DNA of 63,993 bases, filler included, from Streblomastix strix (taxonomy: Eukaryota), in the NCBI GenBank assembly GCA_008636045.1. It is 3 parts of 3 records of this genome, joined end to end, with 100 filler letters (N's around TTAATTAATTAA, not from the genome) between each part and the next. Parts side by side here need not be neighbours in the genome. Positions count along the whole stretch, not along the records: positions 1 to 21,616 come from SNRW01000363.1; 2 more parts are not named here. The stretch is one strand, 5' to 3'. The position numbers were made by a program, and so were the translations under genes. Below, piece after piece: positions 1,495 through 55,515 of this stretch (position 1 is the first letter of the stretch; every line of letters starts with the position of its first letter). The notes beneath the pieces were generated by a model. It saw nothing but the letters and a program-made list of their open reading frames with translations. It ran no database searches and was not told the origin of the DNA.

Positions 1495-2532
1495 ATGATG
1501 ATATAAGAGATTTAATCTGTAACATTCACTGAAAATTCTATTTAAGATGAATACAAAACTAAGCCATTGACAAGGAATTCATTATTCTTAATCAATGGGA
1601 ATCTGTATATAGTTGGTGCAGTTGGTTCAGGAAAAACTACTTTATTAAGTAAACTAATAGTAATTTATAAATAAAAAATTAATCCATTCATTTTAAATTT
1701 CTCCAATTTTGGTGTTGATGAGACTATGGCATTGAATTTAAACTTTAAGAATATAATCTTAACAAATATCAAATATGAAGAAACAATATATTTCTTACCA
1801 AATTTTGATGAAATCAAGTACATTGTAAAAGAAATCTATATGTACTGGAAACTAAGAGAAGTTAATGTACCTTATAAATCAGATTTCATATAATGAATGA
1901 AAGAAAAAATATTAATAATTAATCCAATTAAAGAATCAAAAAAAATTCATAAAAAGAGTATGTAAAACGAATTGCAGATTTATTTTAATAAGAATGTATC
2001 GATATAATTATCAAATACAGTGTATCAACAAAAATAATGAGATTTGCAATTCCAGCAATGATTCATAATGTATAATTCGAAAAAAAACTAATAATCGTAC
2101 CATAAAATACAAATGTTGACGCAGAATTAAAAGTAATAAAAATTCCAATACTATTTCATAGTTCTTTATTAAATTCATTGTTAATATTTGATGACATTGA
2201 GAGTAATGCTGATATTTAAAGATTCTCATCTGGTTTAGCTAAGACTATAACTCATTTAGTATCCGACTGTAGACATAGCAAAAAAACTGTTTTTTTTGTT
2301 GCTTAATGTCCAAGTTACTTATTCAAACCAGCAAGAATATTATCACATATTATGTGTTTAGGAGTTAATCTATCAGAAAGTGATTTGAAATTAGCTTATT
2401 AAGAGAATTCAATTTAGAATATTGACTTTGATGAATTTATGTTATTAAATGGAACTCCTAATAAATATGAATTCATAATTCTTAATAAATGGTAATCTCG
2501 TTATGAAATATTAAAGAACAAAAGATAAATGA
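1495..2532 (+). pseudogene. A32/FtsK-like DNA packaging ATPase (frameshifted)
   Basis: Walker A LYIVGAVGSGKTT (~1603-1641), Walker B SLLIFDDIE (~2175-2200), then DCRHSKK; internal TGA and frameshift near 2040. Confidence 0.8.
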
Positions 2533-2572
2533 AAAATAATGAAGTTGGTTTATTTTTGTTATTTGAGAAATT

Positions 2573-4429
2573 ATGCTGGCAAAGATCATGAGTTAATAAT
2601 AGATATAAGTGATTCGTTCATTAATTTAATCTGATTTCCGATATTTGATATAATATCATAAAAAATCATCAAGTTCCAGTAGTTAATTATCTGGAAATGA
2701 ATATTAATTGATAGTAGATGATTAAAACACATTATTAAATGCATTAAAAGATAATCCTTAAAATTTTGCTATGAAACTAGAAACAAATGGTGTTATGTCG
2801 TTAAAAAACTTGGATTTATTAAATAATGATTTCTTAGCAAAAATGACTACATTAGAATAAGAGGCAAATGTAATATAATAGACATTGGGAACTGCTACAT
2901 AAAATATTGGTGGTTTATAATAATAAATTGATGTAATTAATGATGAACTTTATAGATAAACATTTTTTAGAGGATACTATTTATTGAACACAGATATATA
3001 ATAATTAGATAACTCTGCCAATGGTGATTTTGCAATCTCTGCTGAAAGTGGAACAGTATGGATGTATGATTAGAATTGGTATAACAGTGCAGATATAGTT
3101 ACTGATTAAGTAACTCTTGCAAGTGATGCTACTCCATTTGCTGATAGTGGAACATTTGTTGCAGGAACTTCAAATGAGTATTCACGAAGAGATCATTTAC
3201 ATCCACTATAAGTATCCACATCTTTACCAGGTAAAGATACATCAGTTGGTAATGTAGAATATGCAAATACTTACGCTAAATCTGATAATTAGCATACAAT
3301 TCAAACTGTTGATTCAATATCACCGGCTTATACAGCAGATGGATCTTATGGTACAGTTGATTCATACGCGAGAAATGATCATTCTAATCTTTTTAAAGTC
3401 TAAACTAATGCTTCAATTATACTTGTAGTTAATGATGTCGGAAATAATGTTACTTCAGCATATTATTCAAGACATGATCATGTTCATCCATAGTAATTAA
3501 CTTACGATGGAAACATTAAAGCAACTAAATTCGTCAAAAAATGAGGATTAGCAACAGAAATATTATGTTTTAATGGTAATTCAACAACGGATTTCGTTAC
3601 AAAAACAACAACTTAAACAATTACAGGCTCGAAAACATTTAATAATAACATTATTATGGCAGGTTATAAAATACCTAATGGAACAAATTAATAAATGTTA
3701 ATGGCAGATGGATCAACGAAACCATTAACATTAATATAATAAGAATTTTTTATCACTTGGTCTATATAATATATTAAATTATGTATATTTGGTTCTTATA
3801 CTACTCCAATTGATATATCAGTCGAATTTACATGTAATTGTTGCACAAGATTTGGATTAATATAGTTTAATTAGGTTTATACAAGTGATGGAATAGGAAT
3901 ATATTAATACAAACTTTAAACTAATATGTCTTATGGAATGGATGTGTGCTATATATTATATTTTGGTACTGGTACTGATAGATATGATGAATTATGGGCA
4001 CGAGTATTAATGTGGTCTAACTAACTAATCTTCCAATAAACAAATTAGAGTATTGGAACAGACCCATTATATAACGTTCTTAATAGTGAAATGTAGTCCT
4101 AACTTCCAAGTGGTGCTAGTAGTTGCACAGCGTTATTTGCGAATTCATTTAATTCAGTAGTACATTTAAATTGTAGTTTGAATGATAATAGAGCAGGTTT
4201 AAGTATTGTACGATAAGTAAATGGAGCTGGAATTTATTTAAGTACTAAGCCAGCAACAGACGGTGGAGTTACTGCAAGCTAATGGAATATTATTACATCA
4301 CCAGAAAATTCAGCATAAAATCCATTAGGTTTTATAATTTGTTTAGGGACTGAAGCAACTACAAATATTCGAAGATTACGAATTAGTTCTGATGGAAATA
4401 CATTATCTTTCAATGGTAGAGTACTATGA
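2573..4429 (+). CDS. Putative virion fibre/spike protein, copy 1 (~618 codons, one in-frame TGA near 3542)
   Basis: Repeated YSRRDHLHP / YAKSDNQH / YARNDHSN / YSRHDHVHP units and a QTITGSKTF motif of phage tail-fibre type; Ser/Thr/Gly-rich; paralog at 21717-23538. Confidence 0.65.
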
Positions 4430-5187: not shown

Positions 5188-5235
5188 AAACGCAGTCTAT
5201 TTTGAAGTATGAATGAATTTATAAAGAAATTTATA

Positions 5236-5314
5236 AAAACGAATCCCAAAGGGATTCATTACACCAATGAATCGACTTAATCCCGAAGGGAGTAGTGATG
5301 CTTAGCATCGTTGA
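5236..5314. repeat. 79-bp four-hairpin element, copy 1
   Basis: GAATCCC-AAA-GGGATTC, CCAA-TGAA-TCGA, TCCC-GAA-GGGA, GATGC-TTA-GCATC; direct copy at 7596-7674. Confidence 0.8.
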
Positions 5315-5340: not shown

Positions 5341-5547
5341 TCAGCGTTTATTTAAGTATGAATCTACGTTTCCTGCAATGTTACCAACTGTACCCATAAT
5401 TCCTCCAATTCCAGGATGTAATGTACTTACTGGACCAGCTAATGCATCCATTACTTTACTTACTGTTGGTGCAACCCAACTTGCAGTTTTCTTAATATCA
5501 TTTAATATCTTGGAACCAAAATTTTTCAATCCTGTGAGGAATCCCAT
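5341..5547 (-). CDS. 68-aa amphipathic peptide resembling the adenovirus protein VI membrane-lytic N-terminus, copy 1 (intact)
   Basis: MGFLTGLKNFGSKILNDIKKTASWVAPTVSKVMDALAGPVSTLHPGIGGIMG…; paralogs at 18108-18313 and 24311-24517. Confidence 0.7.
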   Translation of the reverse strand: MGFLTGLKNFGSKILNDIKKTASWVAPTVSKVMDALAGPVSTLHPGIGGIMGTVGNIAGNVDSYLNKR

Positions 5548-5634
5548 TGTTATAATAGCTTTATTGCTTGAATGCTGATTTGATTAATAATAAAACTTAG
5601 CTACAGTTTTAATTAATATTCAAATAAACGTAAT

Positions 5635-7585
5635 ATGAGCCTCACAGCAAGTGCATATATACAAAAATTAGCATACGCATAACATTCAGATTATATTTCC
5701 ATATATTCAGCACTAAATGAAGTATTAAAGGCATAATCAATATATCCTTAAAGTCCTTCAGTAAGTAGATAACAATTCTTTGATTATCCAGTAACTTAAT
5801 TAACAAGTGATGGATAACGATATACACGCGCACTATTAGGTGAAAGTGGAACTGATATATGTTCAATGGTATAAACTTGTTAGGTTAATTGGTAAATAAC
5901 CATCCCAGCAAATAGATTAGCATTATAAATTAATAAAGCAGATTAAACTGCTGTAGCAGGTGCTACAACTGCTCTTTAAAGTGTAAACTTCACACGAAAT
6001 GCAGATTATATATTTAATTATACTCGAACTGTCACAGAAGGAGCAAATGCTGATACATAATAACCATTTAATACCACAGAACATATCAAAATTTGGCTTG
6101 GATACTCAACTGCTTGTTGACAATTTTAATAATTTGCCATTTGCAAAGATAATACAAAACTATTGTATACATCAATTTATGCAAGAGAATAAGCAGAGAT
6201 CTCAGCAAATTTATTAACTGACTTATGTACAAATAATTCAGTGAGCGTATCACCATTAGAATCAATAGTAGCTGGTAAAAGGTAATGTGTAATCTTCTTG
6301 GATATTCCAATAGATGCATTTAGCGCAACTGCAGGTTAATTCAATTATTTAATACCATACCCAATAAAATTTTCAGGAATATTTGATTTAAATCAATTGA
6401 ACCCAATTTTCAATTTATTTCCTGTTTTATCACGCAATTATGTATCCTAATGTCCATAGTTATGGACATAAGATTTCTTATAAGATCCGAAGATTGTATG
6501 GTTGAACAGGACTAATATGGTAACAAATGAACATCTTGCATATTAAATGATTCCTCCAAAGAAACATGATACAATATTCCTAAGAAATCGTGACAATGTT
6601 ACTTATGATTCATACACTGTTAGAATTGTTAATATGGAAGAAAAACCAAACACTGAAAAATTCCCTACCAATTCGTTTTCTCAAATAAAAGATGCAAAAT
6701 TTGATAAATTGAACATAAGCAATATAAGTTTCAATATGGAAAATGAAAAAGCAATAATAGATCTGATTTATACTCAAAAAATAATTAATTTTCTTACATA
6801 AATCATTCATACGTAATCTAGCAACTATCCTTTTGGAAGATTTGATGAAAATAGTAGTAATTTAAAAAGTATTATGTCATTTGCAAACATTAAAGAATTA
6901 TTTATTACATTTGCTATGAATTAATATCCAATATGGTTCTTCGCAGTGTTATTCTAGAAGTTCGATTTAATAAATGATTAGCGTCATCTAGTACCAGAAG
7001 CTTACACATCACTTAATTCAATGGCCTATGCATAAATGTTTTATTGTTTTATCAATTAAGATGTTATAGCCGCACTTTCAGATTTATATCATTCATTAAC
7101 TTTTGAAAATCTGTCAATAAATGAGTCAATAAACGATTATTGTGGAAAAATGGGTGAAAAATTAATAGATAGTGAAAATATTCTCTATAAAACTACGTTA
7201 TTTAGAGGAAATAGAGCAACAAAAGTGTATTTTCCTAATAAATTTATGCTTGCATGGAAGATAGCTACAGATGATTCGTTTATGAGGGTTACAATTCATC
7301 TAAAATGGGTGCTAGAACTAATATTCATGTAACGTTATAAGGAAGTTTAACTCATGGAATCAATAAAAACTCATAACTTAATCCTGGAGAAAATCAGAAT
7401 AATCACCAAATATTTTGTGCAACACGAAGTCATCTAAATTCTATATAAACATAGATAACTCCATTGATGCATTACCTTTGCGGTACTATCGTCAGAGTAA
7501 CATTTGATGATGCACCTGATCCATAAGTTCTGATTTTAGAAGTGATTGGAGAAATGGGAGGAACAATGGTTAGAGAACTGGATGA
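5635..7585 (+). pseudogene. Putative major capsid protein, copy 1 (~650 codons, few lesions)
   Basis: MSLTASAYIQKLAYAQHSDYISIYSA…VRVTFDDAPDPQVLILEVIGEMGGTMVR; strongly conserved in three copies; beta-rich; lies in a module with ATPase and fibre. Capsid identity is inferred from size and context. Confidence 0.6.
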
Positions 7586-7595
7586 AAAAATAACA

Positions 7596-7674
7596 AAAAC
7601 GAACCCCGAAGGGATTTGTTACGCCGATTCATCGGATTAATCCCGAAGGGAGTAGCGATGCTAAGCGTCACTGA
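7596..7674. repeat. 79-bp four-hairpin element, copy 2 (just 3' of the capsid gene)
   Basis: GAACCCC-GAA-GGGATTT, CCGA-TTCA-TCGG, TCCC-GAA-GGGA, GATGC-TAA-GCGTC. Confidence 0.8.
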
Positions 7675-8849: not shown

Positions 8850-9830
8850 AAGCAATTGGTATGTCATTTGGAACTGTTCTCGCTTGTGTCGACGCATGAC
8901 TCGATTCTGTTACGAAATCGCTGGACTTTATCAGAATCCTTGACAATATTGTTTGAATGATATCATCAGGCACCGTCATTGGTACATATATAGCACTTTG
9001 CTTAGTAAAGACCTCCATACCAGAGCTTATAGCATTCTTCCACTCATTTGCTGGGCTCGTTGCAACTTTAATCGGATTTGAGAACTTCAGACACATGATT
9101 AATGCCTCCATTTTGGACATCAGCGCCATTTCAATGGTCTGTTACACAGTTGATATGGGCTTTACATTGGATTTCGTACAATTGAGCCTTGGAGCAACGC
9201 TTAGTGGTCTTCTTGGAGTGCATCTAATCATGACAAATGGTGGAGCAGATATATCAATTGTCATATCAATGCTTAACTCATATTCAGGTTGCGCAACAGC
9301 TGAATCAGGATTTATGCTCAGCAACTTATCTCTGCTATTTTCAGGTGCACTTATTGGACCATCTGTTGCTATTTTGTCTTATGAAATGAGTCAATCAATG
9401 AATAATTCATTCATACTAATGCTTAATCTAATATATTAGTTCTTGGGTATGGAATGGCTGCAGGAAAAGCGTAACATGCAGTTGCTGCTATTACTAAGTT
9501 ACTGAGAAAACATGGATGTAATTTCAGAGTAGCTGTTAACCAAGTTGCTGGGAGATTATCAGGACATATGAATGTAATATTAGGTGGAGCCCTAGCCCCA
9601 TATGATATTGTGCTTGAAATAGACGAAATAAACAAAGATTTTCGGGCTACAGATGTGTCTATTGTACTGTGAGCGAATGATATGTGAATCTATCTGCATT
9701 GGATGATCAAACTTATTTCATTGCTGGAATGCCTATTACTGAATGTTGGATGAGCAAATTGACAAAAGTAGTCAAGAGTTGGAAAAGAATTGGGTATGCT
9801 TTTATTAATAATTCTATATTATTTGCAGAA
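8850..9830 (+). pseudogene. pntB: NAD(P) transhydrogenase beta subunit remnant (dII and dIII)
   Basis: PELIAFFHSFAGL, GGADISIVISMLNSYSG…GFMLSN, then GYGMAAGKAQHAVA, VAGRLSGHMNVIL, YDIVLEIDEINKDF, IAGMPITECW; internal deletions, frameshifts and TGA. Confidence 0.9.
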
Positions 9831-16348: not shown

Positions 16349-18050
16349 TCATCCACTTCTCACCATTGTTCCTCCAACTTCACCTATAATTTCAAAATTT
16401 TAAACTTATAGATCCGGTGCATCATCAAATGTAAAACGTAAGATAGCATCACAAAGATAATGCATCTACTGAGATATCGATGCGTTTGTTTGCGTATGAT
16501 ACGATCTTGTTGCAACAAATGTTTCTAAATTATTTTTATTTTCTGGTGGATCACATCTAATCAATGAACTATCAATTATATCAGGAGATAAGCTTCCTTT
16601 CAATGTCACTTGAATATTAGTACTAGCACCCATCTTAGATTAATAATATACGCTCATGAATGAATTATCAGTTGCCATCTTCCACACTAACAAAAATTTA
16701 TGAGGATAATACGCTTTTTATGCATTACGTTCTCAATATAACGACATATTATAGAAAATTTTCTCTCTATCCTGAAATCCAGCACCTAAACATCCATAGT
16801 AATTTCCATTGGAATCATTGATAGATTAATTCTAGAAATTTACTGAATAATACAAGTCTAATGGTGCTGAAACCTGATCATATTCCACGAAATATTCAAA
16901 CATTCTATCCCAAACCATTGGATTCAATGATGTATATTCTTATGGAAGGACGTATCATTGATCAGTAACCAAATCAAATTTTTTAAATAATACAGGAAAC
17001 TTCAAAGGGGGGTATTGATTCATTGTAAATGTTATAAACATTGCTTTTATATTAGAATATGACATAATACTCTGCATTTAACCACCTGTAGCAGTAAATC
17101 CACTAAATGGAAAATTGTTTGATTATGAACGTAATATTTATGTAGGAAAATTTAATTATTTTGCATTTTTATCATATCAACGATCGCTTCTTCATTTTCT
17201 ATATTGAAATACATATTATGAATCTCTAATTTTTCAAATATTGCATCTTTAATTTATGAAATTGAATTTATTGGTTTTTTACATCACCCAGTTTACCTTC
17301 CATATTCACTAATCTTACAGAATATTTTTAATACGCTATGCTATTCCCCCAGTCTAATAAAAATAATATATCAGGTTTCTCTGGAGGAATAATTTGATAA
17401 GCTAAATGATTATTTATTATTAGGTTGTACATATTTAGCCAAACTACTTTCAAATCTTACAAGTAGTCTTAAGTTCACAGCTATAAATATATCGATGCAT
17501 AATTACATGTAAGTACTGGAAATGAGTTGAAAATATGATTTAATAGAATTAAATCAAGAACTCCAGCAATTGTTATAGGATATGGTATTAGATAGTTAAA
17601 TCTTCCAGCATCAGCACCAAATGCTGAAATTGGAATTTCCAAGAAGATTCCACATTCTCTTTTTCTTCAAACTATTGATTTTAATTGTGAAACATTTTCA
17701 GAATTGTTCGTACACAGATCATTTAATGAATTTGCTGCACCTTCTGTTAAATTCAATTTCAAAGCTAATCTATTTCCTGAAATCGTAATTTACCAGTTCA
17801 TTTAACAAGATTATACCATTGAACAGGTGGCTGTACCTCTTGCACCAAGGGGATCTCTTGTATACCTTTGTCCATCACTCGTCATTTGGGTTCTTGGCTA
17901 ATCAAAGAATTCTTACCTGCTTAATGTAAAACTCTGTGGATGAATCGTAGCAGACCGCAGTACCTCTGCAATAGCTGAATAAGTGGACACATAATCGGAA
18001 TGCTAAACTTTTGCTAATTTCTGTAGGTAATCACTTGCTTAAAAACTCAT
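16349..18050 (-). pseudogene. Putative major capsid protein, copy 2 (internal deletion of roughly 250 bp)
   Basis: MSFQASDYLQKLAKVQHSDYVSTYSA…RFTFDDAPDLQVQNFEIIGEVGGTMVRSG*; colinear with 5635-7585. Confidence 0.6.
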
Positions 18051-18107
18051 GTTTTGTTATTGTATAAAAAAATTAAGCCTTAAATTTAATTCTAAGACAA
18101 ATACAAT

Positions 18108-18313
18108 ATGGGATTCTTCACCGGATTGAAAAACTTTGGCTCAAAAATATTGACCGGCATAAAAAATGTGCATCTTGGATCGCCCCAAGTTTACACAAGA
18201 TAATGGGTGTTTTGGGCTGTCCCGTATCAACATTACACCCAGGAATCTGTAACATAATGGGAACTGTAGGTAACATGGCTGGTGCTGTCGATAGACATTT
18301 AAATAAACTGTGA
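18108..18313 (+). pseudogene. Protein VI-like peptide, copy 2 (1-bp frameshift)
   Basis: MGFFTGLKNFGSKILTGIK…ASWIAPSLHKIMGVLGCPVSTLHPGICNIMGTVGNMAGAVDRHLNKL*. Confidence 0.7.
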
Positions 18314-21204: not shown

Positions 21205-21372
21205 AATATGGCAGAATGGTAGTCTGGTAGCAGTTTTTGATGAAAGTTTCTGATTCGGAACACTCGGATCACTCAAAAGTCATTCATTAACGAATCCATT
21301 TCTTCGTATCAAAGTAACGTTTTTCAATAACTATCAATTATATAATTATCTGAACTCAATTACTAACCGTTA
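21205..21372. repeat. Repeat upstream of integrase B
   Basis: GGCAGAATGG…CAGTTTTTGATGAAAGTT…CAAAAGTCATTCATTAACGAA matches 27925-28035 directly and 25780-25960 inverted. Confidence 0.8.
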
Positions 21373-21616: not shown

Positions 21617-21716
21617 NNNNNNNNNNNNNNNNNNNNNNNNNNNNNNNNNNNNNNNNNNNNTTAATTAATTAANNNNNNNNNNNNNNNNNNNNNNNNNNNN
21701 NNNNNNNNNNNNNNNN
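21617..21716. other. Artificial contig linker
   Basis: N-run with central TTAATTAATTAA. Confidence 0.95.
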
Positions 21717-24310: not shown

Positions 24311-24517
24311 TCATCTTTTATTTAAATGCCGATCAATTCCGCTAGCAATATTATCAATCGTACCCATAATCTAACCTGCACTTGTACGTAACATGCTTAC
24401 TGGTCCGCTAAGCGTTCATATTATTTTATGAAGCGTCGGCGCAACCCATGAAACTGCCTTCTTTTTTCCGGTCAATATTTTTGAGCTAAAATTCTTCTAT
24501 CCAGAAAAGAATCCCAT
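24311..24517 (-). pseudogene. Protein VI-like peptide, copy 3 (internal TGA)
   Basis: MGFFSGQKNFSSKILTGKKKAVSWVAPTLHKII*TLSGPVSML…DRHLNKR*. Confidence 0.65.
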
Positions 24518-24603
24518 AATTATTGTATGTTTTCTTGTTTATGCGTTTGTTTGAATAATAAAACATACGCGTTATTTTAAATTATAAACAAATCGTACGC
24601 AAA

Positions 24604-24870
24604 GTGAGTTTCTCAGCAAGTGATTACCTTCAGAAATTAGCAAAAAATTTAACATTCTGACTATGTTTCAATGTATTCTGCAATGTCAGAAGTGCTAAGA
24701 TAAGCATCGATTCATCCATAAAGTTTTACATTGAGTCGACAAGAATTCTTTGATCAGCCTGTTTCTCAGATGACAAGTGATGGACAAAGATACACGCGTG
24801 CTCCCCTTGGTGCAAGAGGTAATGCAGCATGTTCAATGGTGTAGTCTTATTAAGTTAACTGTTCATCATC
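24604..24870 (+). pseudogene. 5' fragment of putative major capsid gene, copy 3
   Basis: SFSASDYLQKLAK…QHSDYVSMYSAMSEVL…QMTSDGQRYTRAPLGARG; truncated by terminal-repeat sequence. Confidence 0.7.
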
Positions 24871-25579: not shown

Positions 25580-26042
25580 ATATAAAAATAAAATATTCAT
25601 TTAAACGATGAGACATTCAAAAAATCATTAAATGGTGTATGAACTTAGGCTCAAAATATTATTCTTAGTTAAAGAAATAAATAAATGTCAAAAATTTAAA
25701 TAAATAAAGTTGGTTTATCATCGATTCATAATAAAATGGTTGCTCTTGAAAATTAATACTGTGCTCCGTTCCTGTATATTAACGGATAACAATTGAACTC
25801 AGATAATTATATAATTACTAATGATTAACACTAATGAAAACGTAATTTTGGCAAGAAGAAATGGCTTCGTTAATGAATGACTTTTGGCTGGATTGGGTGG
25901 ATTGGGTGGATTGAGTCAAAAACTTTTATCAAAAACTGCTGCCAGCCTGCCATTCTGCTAGATTGTTAATTGATTTCATCGGCCGCATGCGGAGTCATCG
26001 ACATGATTTCAACATAAATTGTTTTATTTTTGCAAGAAATAA

Positions 26043-27887: not shown

Positions 27888-28341
27888 AGCTAATGGTTTT
27901 ATATTTTTATTTATTTTCTCATTTCTGGCAGAATGGCAGGCTGGCAGCAGTTTTTGATGAAAGTTTTTGACTCAATTCACCCAATCCACTCAATCCAGCC
28001 AAAAGTCATTCATTAACGAAGCCATATCTTCGTGCCAATTTCATAAATTTCATTGATATTTTATGACTCAATCCACCCAATCCAGCGCAGCCTAAACATC
28101 AAACAAATATATATTATGTTCAAAACTCACTAATGATTTCAATAATGACATCTCCAATAAATTTTAGGTTTCCGTTAATGAAATTCATCAACCAACTCCA
28201 TTATCCAAATCCATCAACCAACTCCATCAACATTCCTATGTAGTTATGAGAATATGGAGAGTGCCATACGTTCAAAAATCAACATCATTAATCAACTTCA
28301 TTAATCTACTTCAACATTCATATTCATTAATCTATTTCAAT

Positions 28342-43314: not shown

Positions 43315-43414
43315 NNNNNNNNNNNNNNNNNNNNNNNNNNNNNNNNNNNNNNNNNNNNTTAATTAATTAANNNNNNNNNNNNNNNNNNNNNNNNNNNNNN
43401 NNNNNNNNNNNNNN
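43315..43414. other. Artificial contig linker
   Basis: N-run with central TTAATTAATTAA. Confidence 0.95.
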
Positions 43415-53103: not shown

Positions 53104-55515
53104 TAGAGCTGTTACAATTCGTCAATGAATATTGTTTTTACGAGCGAAATCGTCTGTAAATTTAAGAATTTTGACGAAAATAATTTAATCGCTATATTTT
53201 AATGTAAAGGATAAGAATTTGGTATATATTTTTATGAGTATTAATACAAAATTTTAAAATAAAAATAAAACTATAAGAAAAATCAATTGGTATTATATTA
53301 AGAAATGGATAAAATTGAAAAATTAAAATTGAAATATGTATTTGAATTATTAAAAAGATAATACAAAGAATAGTTTGTTGAATTGAAGAAATATTTATTA
53401 TAAAATACTTATTTAAAATATTATTGAGCAAATTATATAAGAAATTTTATTCAAAGTATATATAAAATTGACATTATTAAAAAAAAATAAAAAATTTTTG
53501 TTTGAGAGCAATGCGAATAAAGAATAATTTAATATTTATTAAATTATTTTTATTTTCATATATAACTTAAATAAAAATTATTTTGTAATTACATATATAG
53601 ATATTTTGGTTATAATATGATATTTATTAATAAAATTTAGTTTTAGTAATAATAATGATATCAATTTATTGAAAAGATATCAAATTTTAACATTATCGAG
53701 ACATATAATATTATTATTTATAACTTATACAAATATTGAACAGCTAACCAGATTAAAACCCAATAATAAATTTTTAAAAATTCTTCCAAAGCTACATGTT
53801 CGATTTTATGTTTAATATATATAAATTTTTATGAGTAAGAGTGAATCAGATCAATAAAATTGAATTATTTTTCAATTTATTACTGCTGGAATTCGCATTT
53901 CAAACTTTTCGACATATAAAATCACTGACGAAAAAGTTGCACTCATGAATATCTTTTCTAAATTCATGTTAATTAAATAAAAAATGGGAGAAAATTTTAA
54001 TGCACGTCATATATTCATTTTATTTTATTACATTGACATATATGATGTTAATATCGGGGTGAATATAATATTAATGTTTGATCTTGCATCGTTGAGAAGA
54101 TAGAACAAAAAATTGTTTTCTTGCTTTTAACTTATATAATTTTTGTAAATTTATTAATATTATATTTAAAAATGTATAGATGATAAAAGTAAATATCTTA
54201 AAATATAAAATAATTAATTTATTTATATTTGTGAATAGAAAAATTGAAATTTTTCGAATTTTTAGGTAAAAAATTTATAAGAGTTTTATTCTACAGATTA
54301 TAGTCTCATTTTAGATAAATTATATCTAAATAAAACATTTTTATATATTTAAATCAATATTTAATAATAATATTTTACATATATTAAAATGCATTATAAA
54401 TACTGAGTTTCATTTTACTTAAATTTAAAATTTATTTTATGGAATATATTATAATATATATTTAAAATTATTATTAAATGTATAATTAAATATATGAAAA
54501 TATTTTATTTGGATATAATTCATCTAAAATAAGACTATAATCTATAACATAAAACTATTAAAAAATTTTAACCTAAAAATTCGAAAAATTTCAATTTTTC
54601 TATTCACAAATATAAATAATTTTATAATTTTATATTTTAACATATTTACTTTTATAATCTATACATTTTTAAATATAATATTAATAAATTTACAAAAATT
54701 ATATAGGATTAAAGCAAGAAAACAATTTTTTGCTCCTTCTTCCAAACGATACAAGATCAGACACAATAAATATATTCAACCTGATATTAGCATCATATAT
54801 GTCAATTTTATTAAATAAAAAGGATATGTGACATCTTCAAAAATTTTCTCCCAAATATTCAATAATTCACTCCAAGTCACAACTTTAACATATAATACCT
54901 ATTCAATAGGTTTTGTTTAAATAAAAATTTGATCTTAATAATTTTTTGAAATATTTGTTTTAACTTTGTTGATGAATTAAATTAAATATTATATGTATAG
55001 AAATTTAATAATTTATATCAAAGTATTTAATTTTTAAGGACCAAATAAGAAAAACCTTAAACAGTTCACAAATAAAATATAAAATTGACGAATTAGTCAA
55101 AATTTAATTGGCTGACGAATGGACGGCGCCAAAATTTTTCGTTAAATTCGTCAAATCCTCATAAACAACCTATTTTTCTATCGATTTTAACTATTATTAT
55201 TTTTATTATAATTATTATTCGAATATGATATAAATTAATCAAATTCGAAATTTTATGGCTAAACAAAAAAAATTAATAGATTTTTTGTATATTTTTTTAA
55301 AAAATCAGATCTTTATTTAATATAACACTTCAATTTGATATATACATGCTATGAACATTAATTTTATTAACATTAATATATTATTCAAAATAAAACATCA
55401 AAGTTTAGAATGTTTTAAAATTTTTTTTTTTTTTTATTTTAAAAAACATTTTTAACGAATTTCGTCAAGGAAAATAGCCCATTGAGGACGCATTTGACGA
55501 ATTTTGACAGCTCTA
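53104..55515. mobile_element. Non-autonomous hAT-like element (2412 bp)
   Basis: TIRs TAGAGCTGTTACAATTCGTCAA / TTGACGAATTTTGACAGCTCTA; perfect 8-bp TSD ATAATAAG (53096-53103, 55516-55523); TTCGTCAA/TTGACGAA subterminal repeats. Confidence 0.88.
53984..54853. repeat. Foldback palindrome with ~410-bp arms
   Basis: TGGGAGAAAATTTT…TTTGTGAATAGAAAAATTGAAATTTTTCGAATTTTTAGGT… mirrored by …ACCTAAAAATTCGAAAAATTTCAATTTTTCTATTCACAAA…AAAATTTTCTCCCA. Confidence 0.88.

Follow-up and report, generated by a model that had tools for sequence, protein, structure and literature searches.

A selected, capsid-linked small gene of Polinton-like viruses in Streblomastix strix and the likeness of its predicted product to virophage capsid tails

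A small gene in decayed Polinton-like elements integrated in the genome of Streblomastix strix, a protist of the termite gut, is real, under selection and linked to the capsid gene, and it encodes an amphipathic protein of a Polinton-like virus. As judged by profile comparison, the C-terminal tail of virophage capsid proteins is a better match for this protein than adenovirus protein VI (pVI), the relative named in the original prediction, which had not considered the virophage tail. We lean, if only slightly, towards reading the product as a free-standing counterpart of the protease-cut virophage capsid tail, which would be packaged and would disrupt a membrane on entry. The finding bears on how non-enveloped Polinton-like viruses and virophages cross membranes and on the origin of pVI.

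The window and its viral elements

The window, that is, the whole stretch of 63,993 nucleotides analysed here, is Streblomastix strix-type DNA with a GC content of about 25%. The standard code was rejected since it leaves almost no long ORFs, while table 6 (TAA/TAG = Gln) reads well. Relatives of the small protein and of the neighbouring large protein are nearly all annotated as Streblomastix strix, and the available parts of Bellas et al. (PMC10120064) assign S. strix elements to a capsid group of Metamonada that uses the host code, with the number 820 in the row for the S. strix genome in Table S1. Several decayed Polinton-like elements occupy positions 1-43,300, with weak matches to ATPase, HNH, integrase, helicase and pPolB families; the matches to ATPase, pPolB and RVE integrase lie under the curated cut-offs and are scattered over several elements. 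The runs of N at 21617-21716 and 43315-43414 are artificial spacers between separate contigs, and copies 1 and 2 of the small gene are therefore not true neighbours of copy 3. No pair of terminal inverted repeats enclosing a capsid-bearing element was found among the decayed elements of either scaffold piece. The broken ATPase (Table 1) is likely, from its sequence matches, the A32/FtsK packaging ATPase of the copy-1 element. The repetitive gene that overlaps its end appears fibre-like by our own reading, and in other copies a fibre-like repetitive gene stands directly downstream of the small gene.

Table 1. Features of the window around the three copies of the small gene
Feature	Position	Strand	Remarks
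P-loop ATPase, broken	1495..2591	+	Weak matches under curated cut-offs
Repetitive gene	2573..4429	+	No match in Pfam
Small gene, copy 1 (P0001)	5341..5547	-	Intact 68-aa ORF, amphipathic protein
Gap between divergent start codons, copy 1	5548..5634		87 bp, AT-rich
Major capsid gene, copy 1	5635..7574	+	In-frame TGA at 6118-6120; frameshift near 7284-7300
Major capsid gene, copy 2	16349..18050	-	Many pieces; profile positions about 104-190 absent
Gap between divergent starts, copy 2	18051..18107		57 bp
Small gene, copy 2	18108..18313	+	Diverged; 1-bp frameshift near codon 18-21; followed by HNH gene
Small gene, copy 3	24311..24517	-	Diverged; in-frame TGA at codon 34
Gap between divergent starts, copy 3	24518..24603		86 bp
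Capsid gene 5' remnant, copy 3	24604..24868	+	GTG at start position; profile positions 13-88 matched

The small gene and its pairing with the capsid gene

The small gene stands head-to-head with a double-jelly-roll major capsid gene in all three copies of the window, and the coordinates and divergent orientation originally predicted are correct for each of them. The three loci are real, although the quoted sequence occurs once, at 5341-5547(-), and not three times, copies 2 and 3 being diverged and broken. Similarly, the predicted distance of 60-90 bp from the capsid start holds for copies 1 and 3 (87 and 86 bp), whereas copy 2, at 57 bp, falls just under it. A bidirectional promoter, as originally proposed, may lie in these gaps, among which inspection by eye gave no clear common motif.

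Purifying selection acts on the frame (dN/dS about 0.1); its absence would have counted against the original prediction. In this estimate, which is based on the three window copies only, pN/pS of the small-gene frame was 0.196/0.716, 0.266/0.761 and 0.231/0.762 for the three copy pairs; the first of these corresponds to a dN/dS of about 0.10, and the 5' end of the capsid gene is similar at about 0.16. The remaining frames of the small gene gave 0.7-2.5, with the exception of the mirrored antisense frame, which has third positions in common with it (0.21-0.25).

A profile of the capsid gene recovered exactly three loci in the window, each adjoining a small gene, the remnant at copy 3 being about 90 codons long. 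The large gene had no sequence match in Pfam or PDB. An intact relative could be modelled with low confidence only (pLDDT 46, TM about 0.2), and the top Foldseek ranks are all capsids (Sputnik, iridovirus, adomavirus and virophage), with best E-values of 4.5e-5 in PDB (Sputnik) and 4.9e-6 in BFVD (adomavirus LO7). On the evidence of these ranks from a low-confidence model, we identify the predicted product as a double-jelly-roll major capsid protein.

Outside the window, an alignment search gave 137 matches, with S. strix locus tags on 112 of the 120 matches listed. Locus tags and gene calls indicate that, among the matches listed, the head-to-head pairing recurs genome-wide in S. strix. Locus tags are consecutive in 13 of 14 peptide/capsid pairs on equal-length contigs, a test that covers the matches listed only, most family members falling outside it. 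Over-long gene calls containing the peptide (n=83) have an antisense capsid upstream in 25 cases and a sense capsid in none, and their downstream neighbours vary (fibre-like in 16, a 131-aa gene in 4, HNH in 2). Because the capsid orientation is constant while the downstream neighbours differ, the head-to-head unit appears stable in changing surroundings. The claim that the peptide is always paired with the capsid gene thus stands for the testable S. strix copies; it does not extend to a relative in standard-code metagenome DNA (L001:811-1014), which adjoins a fibre-like ORF on a contig that ends within the gene and whose divergent neighbour is a 113-aa gene and not a capsid gene.

Properties of the peptide family

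The family is uniform in size (67-70 aa in 88 of 89 aligned members) and basic, 84 of the 89 carrying a net charge between +4 and +8. Over the 89 members, the hydrophobic moment of the first helix averages 0.54; in P0001 the moment is 0.58 for residues 2-19 and reaches a maximum of 0.63, equalled by 2 of 2000 shuffles, which upholds the amphipathic helix of the original prediction. The sequence predicts an amphipathic helix rich in Lys, and the model of P0001 is one continuous helix (pLDDT 75, pTM 0.32) that is uninformative on the fold.

It was also suggested that the peptide is possibly myristoylated at Gly2. The glycine itself is there in 82 of 89 members, with a conservation no higher than that of F3 (87), N9 (86) and S12 (85). 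A myristoylation pattern of the PROSITE type fits only one of 81 Met-Gly starts, because residue 3 is Phe. Patterns of this type miss some real substrates. On these sequences, myristoylation is unsupported.

The sampled 18-mers have a mean hydrophobicity of at most 0.66, with no long hydrophobic segment. This argues against a non-virion late protein that would permeabilise host membranes for exit, or a peptide directed against the bacteria of the host, as does the nature of the best match, a virion-derived peptide, and of the neighbours, which are genes of the structural module. Such a protein would be in keeping with the Cecropin-like features of the family, and late genes would likewise be expected to cluster with the capsid gene; nevertheless, we regard this explanation as quite improbable.

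Comparison with adenovirus protein VI

The resemblance to pVI lies in a short stretch. Family members carry the motif W-S-G-L/I-K-N-F-G with an N-terminal amphipathic helix, at a score equal to that of motif-selected tape-measure controls, and some have nine residues identical to pVI. The match is about 12 residues long and falls on pVI residues 40-52, within the membrane-lytic helix, where F3 of the family aligns with L40 of pVI, a residue whose mutation lowers lysis according to the available sections of PMC8310329. The profile-profile check proposed with the original prediction confirmed a helix motif in common (in hhalign, 31 distinct pVI N-termini, themselves chosen by motif, matched with a probability of 95% over 15 columns only) and gave nothing past residue 13 (probability 0.6%). 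With a pVI HMM the family reached a median of 10.4 bits, which does not exceed the 12 bits of motif-selected tape-measure segments.

Searches against curated families agree with this. Only one of 30 members matched Pfam MCPVI (E=0.12), for which a true pVI scores 331 bits; a PDB search gave pre-protein VI at E=1.6 with a 30-sequence query and no pVI match with the 89-sequence alignment (A3); and the nearest named Atlas cluster was Cecropin-A (0.79), pre-protein VI being at 0.75, both under the lead threshold of 0.9.

Moreover, the distinguishing parts of pVI (PF02993, MCPVI), namely its propeptide, the PPxY motif and the C-terminal cofactor/NLS peptide, are absent from the S. strix protein. 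No N-terminal propeptide cut after Gly-Gly was found in the 89 members, whose helix starts at residue 2; PPxY occurs in 0 of 89 members vs 35 of 35 pVI; and the last 11 aa hold at most three K/R in 88 of 89 members, as opposed to four or five in pVI, the basic cofactor peptide being absent. The pVI ORFs found were about 230-280 aa long, and at about 250 aa pVI differs clearly from the 68 aa of the S. strix protein. Both genes adjoin a major capsid gene, but the S. strix gene does so head-to-head, whereas the pVI gene of adenoviruses lies upstream of the major capsid gene on the same strand.

At the level of sequence, the S. strix small protein is not a member of the pVI family, and such membership, as raised by the original prediction, is largely refuted. 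A direct, myristoylated orthologue of pVI could account for the nine identical residues, the hhalign match over 15 columns and the alignment of F3 with a lysis-affecting site; with the tape-measure controls scoring as high as the family, the match ending at residue 13, the propeptide, PPxY and myristoylation pattern lacking and the pVI comparison set itself motif-selected, it is very improbable.

Comparison with virophage capsid tails

A first motif scan gave 44 loci, consisting of 36 adenovirus pVI genes, 3 tape-measure repeats, 3 virophage major capsid genes and 2 loci not placed in an ORF. In the three virophage genes the motif stands directly after Gly-Gly or Gly-Ser-Gly near residue 522, at a position equal to the end of the mature Sputnik capsid chain (V20). 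A non-circular virophage set was then made up of capsids chosen by core patterns and not by the tail, giving 29 loci. Five of these stopped short of the tail, so that 24 tails were complete; the HMM took in 20 of them, after exclusion of 3 that the motif scan had already picked and of 1 (L115) whose site the cut-site rule overlooked. The tails of L121 and L122 are identical. All members of the set belong to a single Sputnik-like clade, with 42-67% identity to the query, and mavirus is not among them. Core-selected tails start like motif-selected ones, with D/N, Phe, an aromatic residue or Leu, Ser-Gly-Leu, a basic residue and Phe-Gly. The presence of this pattern in 21 of 21 tails is descriptive only, the pattern having been composed after the tails were seen, and so is their mean moment of 0.60.

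The family matched these tails with an hhalign probability of 97.8-97.9 over 35-40 columns (0.9% for the reversed alignment) and a score of 65 vs at most 16.9 in 40 column shuffles. Residues 14-68 alone, at a probability of only 24%, still scored 21.1, above the highest value (16.9) obtained when the columns of the whole alignment were shuffled 40 times. The tail HMM gave a median of 26.5 bits on the 89 family members (27.2 for P0001), 14-18 bits on motif-selected tape-measure segments and a non-family maximum of 16.4 on about 16,000 frames. In pairwise comparison, P0001 had 19/52 identities with one virophage capsid (E=3e-7), vs E=0.002 with a pVI. A search of 1.84 billion proteins returned no virophage capsid protein or pVI at E<=0.001.

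The likeness is strongest at the start, the first 12-17 residues being near-identical in Sputnik-like virophages, from which the comparison with the known tails (mavirus MCPC1 and the 87 residues missing from mature Sputnik V20) is drawn, the mavirus and Sputnik tails themselves lying outside the sequence comparison. It extends to the order of an amphipathic helix, a Pro break and a second helix, to the position at a new N-terminus and to the linkage with the capsid. The arrangement is different: the virophage tail is a fused C-terminal extension, whereas the S. strix counterpart is a separate gene on the opposite strand without an upstream Gly-Gly. Fusion to a capsid C-terminus behind a Gly-Gly site was not seen in the family, a sense capsid being upstream in 0 of the 83 long calls. 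Furthermore, a Gly-rich linker and a basic end are found in 19 of 21 virophage tails, whereas the S. strix protein has neither and family members end shortly past the last helix. Full-length S. strix capsid proteins have predicted strands at the C-terminus, with no amphipathic or basic tail. Overall, we judge the S. strix peptide to be probably homologous to the virophage capsid tails.

Virophage tails and pVI have an outline in common as well: both have a Gly-Gly site and a basic end (in 19 of 21 tails), and their amphipathic helices are near-identical. Their profiles (L101-L127 vs L003-L046) match with a probability of 92% over 20 columns. From PDB, the virophage-tail profile retrieved six pVI sequences, with E-values of only 0.33-2.1 and ranked below unrelated matches, which is not significant.

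Convergence and distant relatives

The motif also occurs in tape-measure proteins, one of which (PHROG) matched P0001 at E=0.005, and similar helices are found at the N-termini of tailed-phage genes and in repetitive secreted-type proteins. The helix might accordingly have the same membrane-active role in the virion and have arisen independently of virophage tails and pVI, from a pattern of aromatic residues, Gly and Lys that membrane-seeking helices reuse. This recurrence is in favour of such convergence, as are the nearest named cluster being Cecropin-A and not pre-protein VI and the lack of a significant virophage capsid match library-wide. On the other hand, virophage tails score above the motif-selected controls and match over about 40 columns, and in all three cases the helix is capsid-linked, belongs to one virus lineage and begins at a new N-terminus; we hold convergence to be unlikely. 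Even if it applied, the product would still likely be an entry factor, but with no evolutionary link.

Two further motif scans contributed nothing to the family: the second (53 loci) consisted mostly of one non-coding frame plus tape measures, and the third (6 loci) gave unrelated tailed-phage sequences only, which were kept as convergence controls. Two tailed-phage genes (L130:7082-8032 and L133:8001-8798) start with a similar Met-Gly amphipathic helix; they have no PHROG match and, by our own reading, occupy the site usual for ejection proteins. Their sequences hint at Met-Gly helices as a recurrent solution for membrane contact.

The search of 1.84 billion proteins gave 95 matches at E<=0.001, including several repetitive unrelated proteins. 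Ten divergent stand-alone homologs (P0314, P0316-P0319 and P0324-P0328) are 52-208 aa long and mostly start with Met-Gly-Phe/Leu. IMG/VR searches with P0001, A3 and A2 returned no relatives, the single Clostridium match of a GTDB scan (24% identity) was taken as chance, and phage tblastn found nothing better than E=3.

Proposed role and origin

If the small protein is a free-standing counterpart of the virophage tail, it would be expressed together with the capsid protein from the short common gap and would sit within the capsomers, as pVI does. Uncoating would then free the helix to insert into a vacuole or endosome membrane and rupture it. In pVI and virophages the viral cysteine protease cleaves at Gly-Gly, and the helix begins at this cut or a few residues past it. 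In S. strix the start codon would replace the maturation cut; since it places the helix at the N-terminus already, the protease cut would be superfluous. A Pfam scan of 76 of 126 long frames of the decayed window found no clan CE cysteine protease, and one virophage protease fragment gave a best E of 0.24 against 1000 of its frames, which is a weak test. A split of the tail into a gene of its own would require a rearrangement, because the small gene adjoins the 5' end of the capsid gene, on the opposite strand.

Mavirus offers a precedent in the literature. According to the available parts of Born et al. (PMC6048507), the mavirus protease was shown to cleave the capsid tail at Gly-Gly, and endosome rupture was proposed as the role of an amphipathic helix within its first fragment; their Fig. 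S2 is an alignment of virophage tails that may already contain the motif. For the virophage tail, too, membrane activity is a proposal.

The same source proposed that the mavirus tail is a scaffolding domain, and the available sections of PMC8310329 describe the pVI helix as binding hexon inside capsomers during assembly. Together with the tight linkage to the capsid gene, this would suit an internal scaffold or capsomer chaperone for the tail-less capsid, or a role in lipid recruitment during assembly, with no lytic function. The net charge of the family and its high hydrophobic moment point instead to lipid binding, although these roles are compatible with each other, and a purely assembly-related protein seems to us rather improbable.

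On a broader view, Polinton-related viruses may have inherited one ancestral penetration helix in three arrangements: within pVI behind a protease site, as a cleaved virophage tail, and as a free, protease-independent gene of metamonad Polinton-like and other unplaced viruses. Going by sequence, this is a tentative proposal that we would not yet favour, and a common origin of the S. strix peptide with the pVI helix is likewise somewhat doubtful, if perhaps slightly less so. If one ancestral helix is indeed involved, the virophage tail, with its order of Gly-Gly, lytic helix, Gly-Gly and basic end, would amount to protein VI in miniature. The S. strix gene would then be the minimal form and point to the origin of pVI.

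Relation to described viruses

Small predicted membrane-active genes are known from related virion modules. Those of Polinton-related viruses are named cupiennin-like, PLA2X, GasderminX and "VI" in the available part of PMC8502044, and adomavirus LO6 is a further one in that of bioRxiv 10.1101/341131. The adintovirus "Cupiennin", PLA2X and GasderminX, the MELD "VI" and LO6 resemble the S. strix gene in being small virion-module genes, some annotated as pVI-like; they belong to animal-associated and other MELD viruses and are likened to it by description only. The name Streblomastix is absent from the supplement text searched (Starrett, PMC8502044). As a concept, a link between Polintons and adenoviruses in entry proteins is already in print. 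What remains of the link originally predicted is the motif in common with the pVI helix, without membership of the pVI family.

The elements themselves resemble the Metamonada Maverick/Polinton-like endogenous viruses of PMC10120064, which, in the sections available, include S. strix elements with divergent double-jelly-roll capsids and TAA/TAG read as Gln and leave a small capsid-linked gene unmentioned. The accessible part of bioRxiv 10.64898/2026.06.19.733378 leaves the Metamonada group unplaced, and parts of PMC4405056 served as a background source. In open-access full-text literature we found no description of the metamonad small gene and no sequence match between virophage capsid tail and pVI helix. 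The small gene could serve as a marker for this unplaced virus group. Its presence suggests a functional entry module in the viruses from which these decayed protist elements are derived, and a selected, capsid-linked gene of 68 residues offers a short synthetic peptide testable for Polinton-like viruses and virophages.

Further observations on the window

An 88-nt repeat, 80% identical and relatively GC-rich, occurs at 5227-5314 and 7587-7674, just 3' of the small gene and of the capsid gene of copy 1; it may be a 3' signal common to the two genes or a small insertion. A 115-nt inverted repeat (95%) at 25848-25962 and 27924-28038 surrounds a 2-kb integrase-bearing stretch, and a related sequence is found at 21209-21323; this is possibly a small non-autonomous element or the ends of a nested one. 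Between two viral elements, at 8957-9830, lies a decayed NAD(P) transhydrogenase beta-subunit sequence (Pfam PNTB, E=3e-29). Finally, positions 53968-54870 form a near-palindrome with 443-nt arms that are 84% complementary and 17 nt apart.
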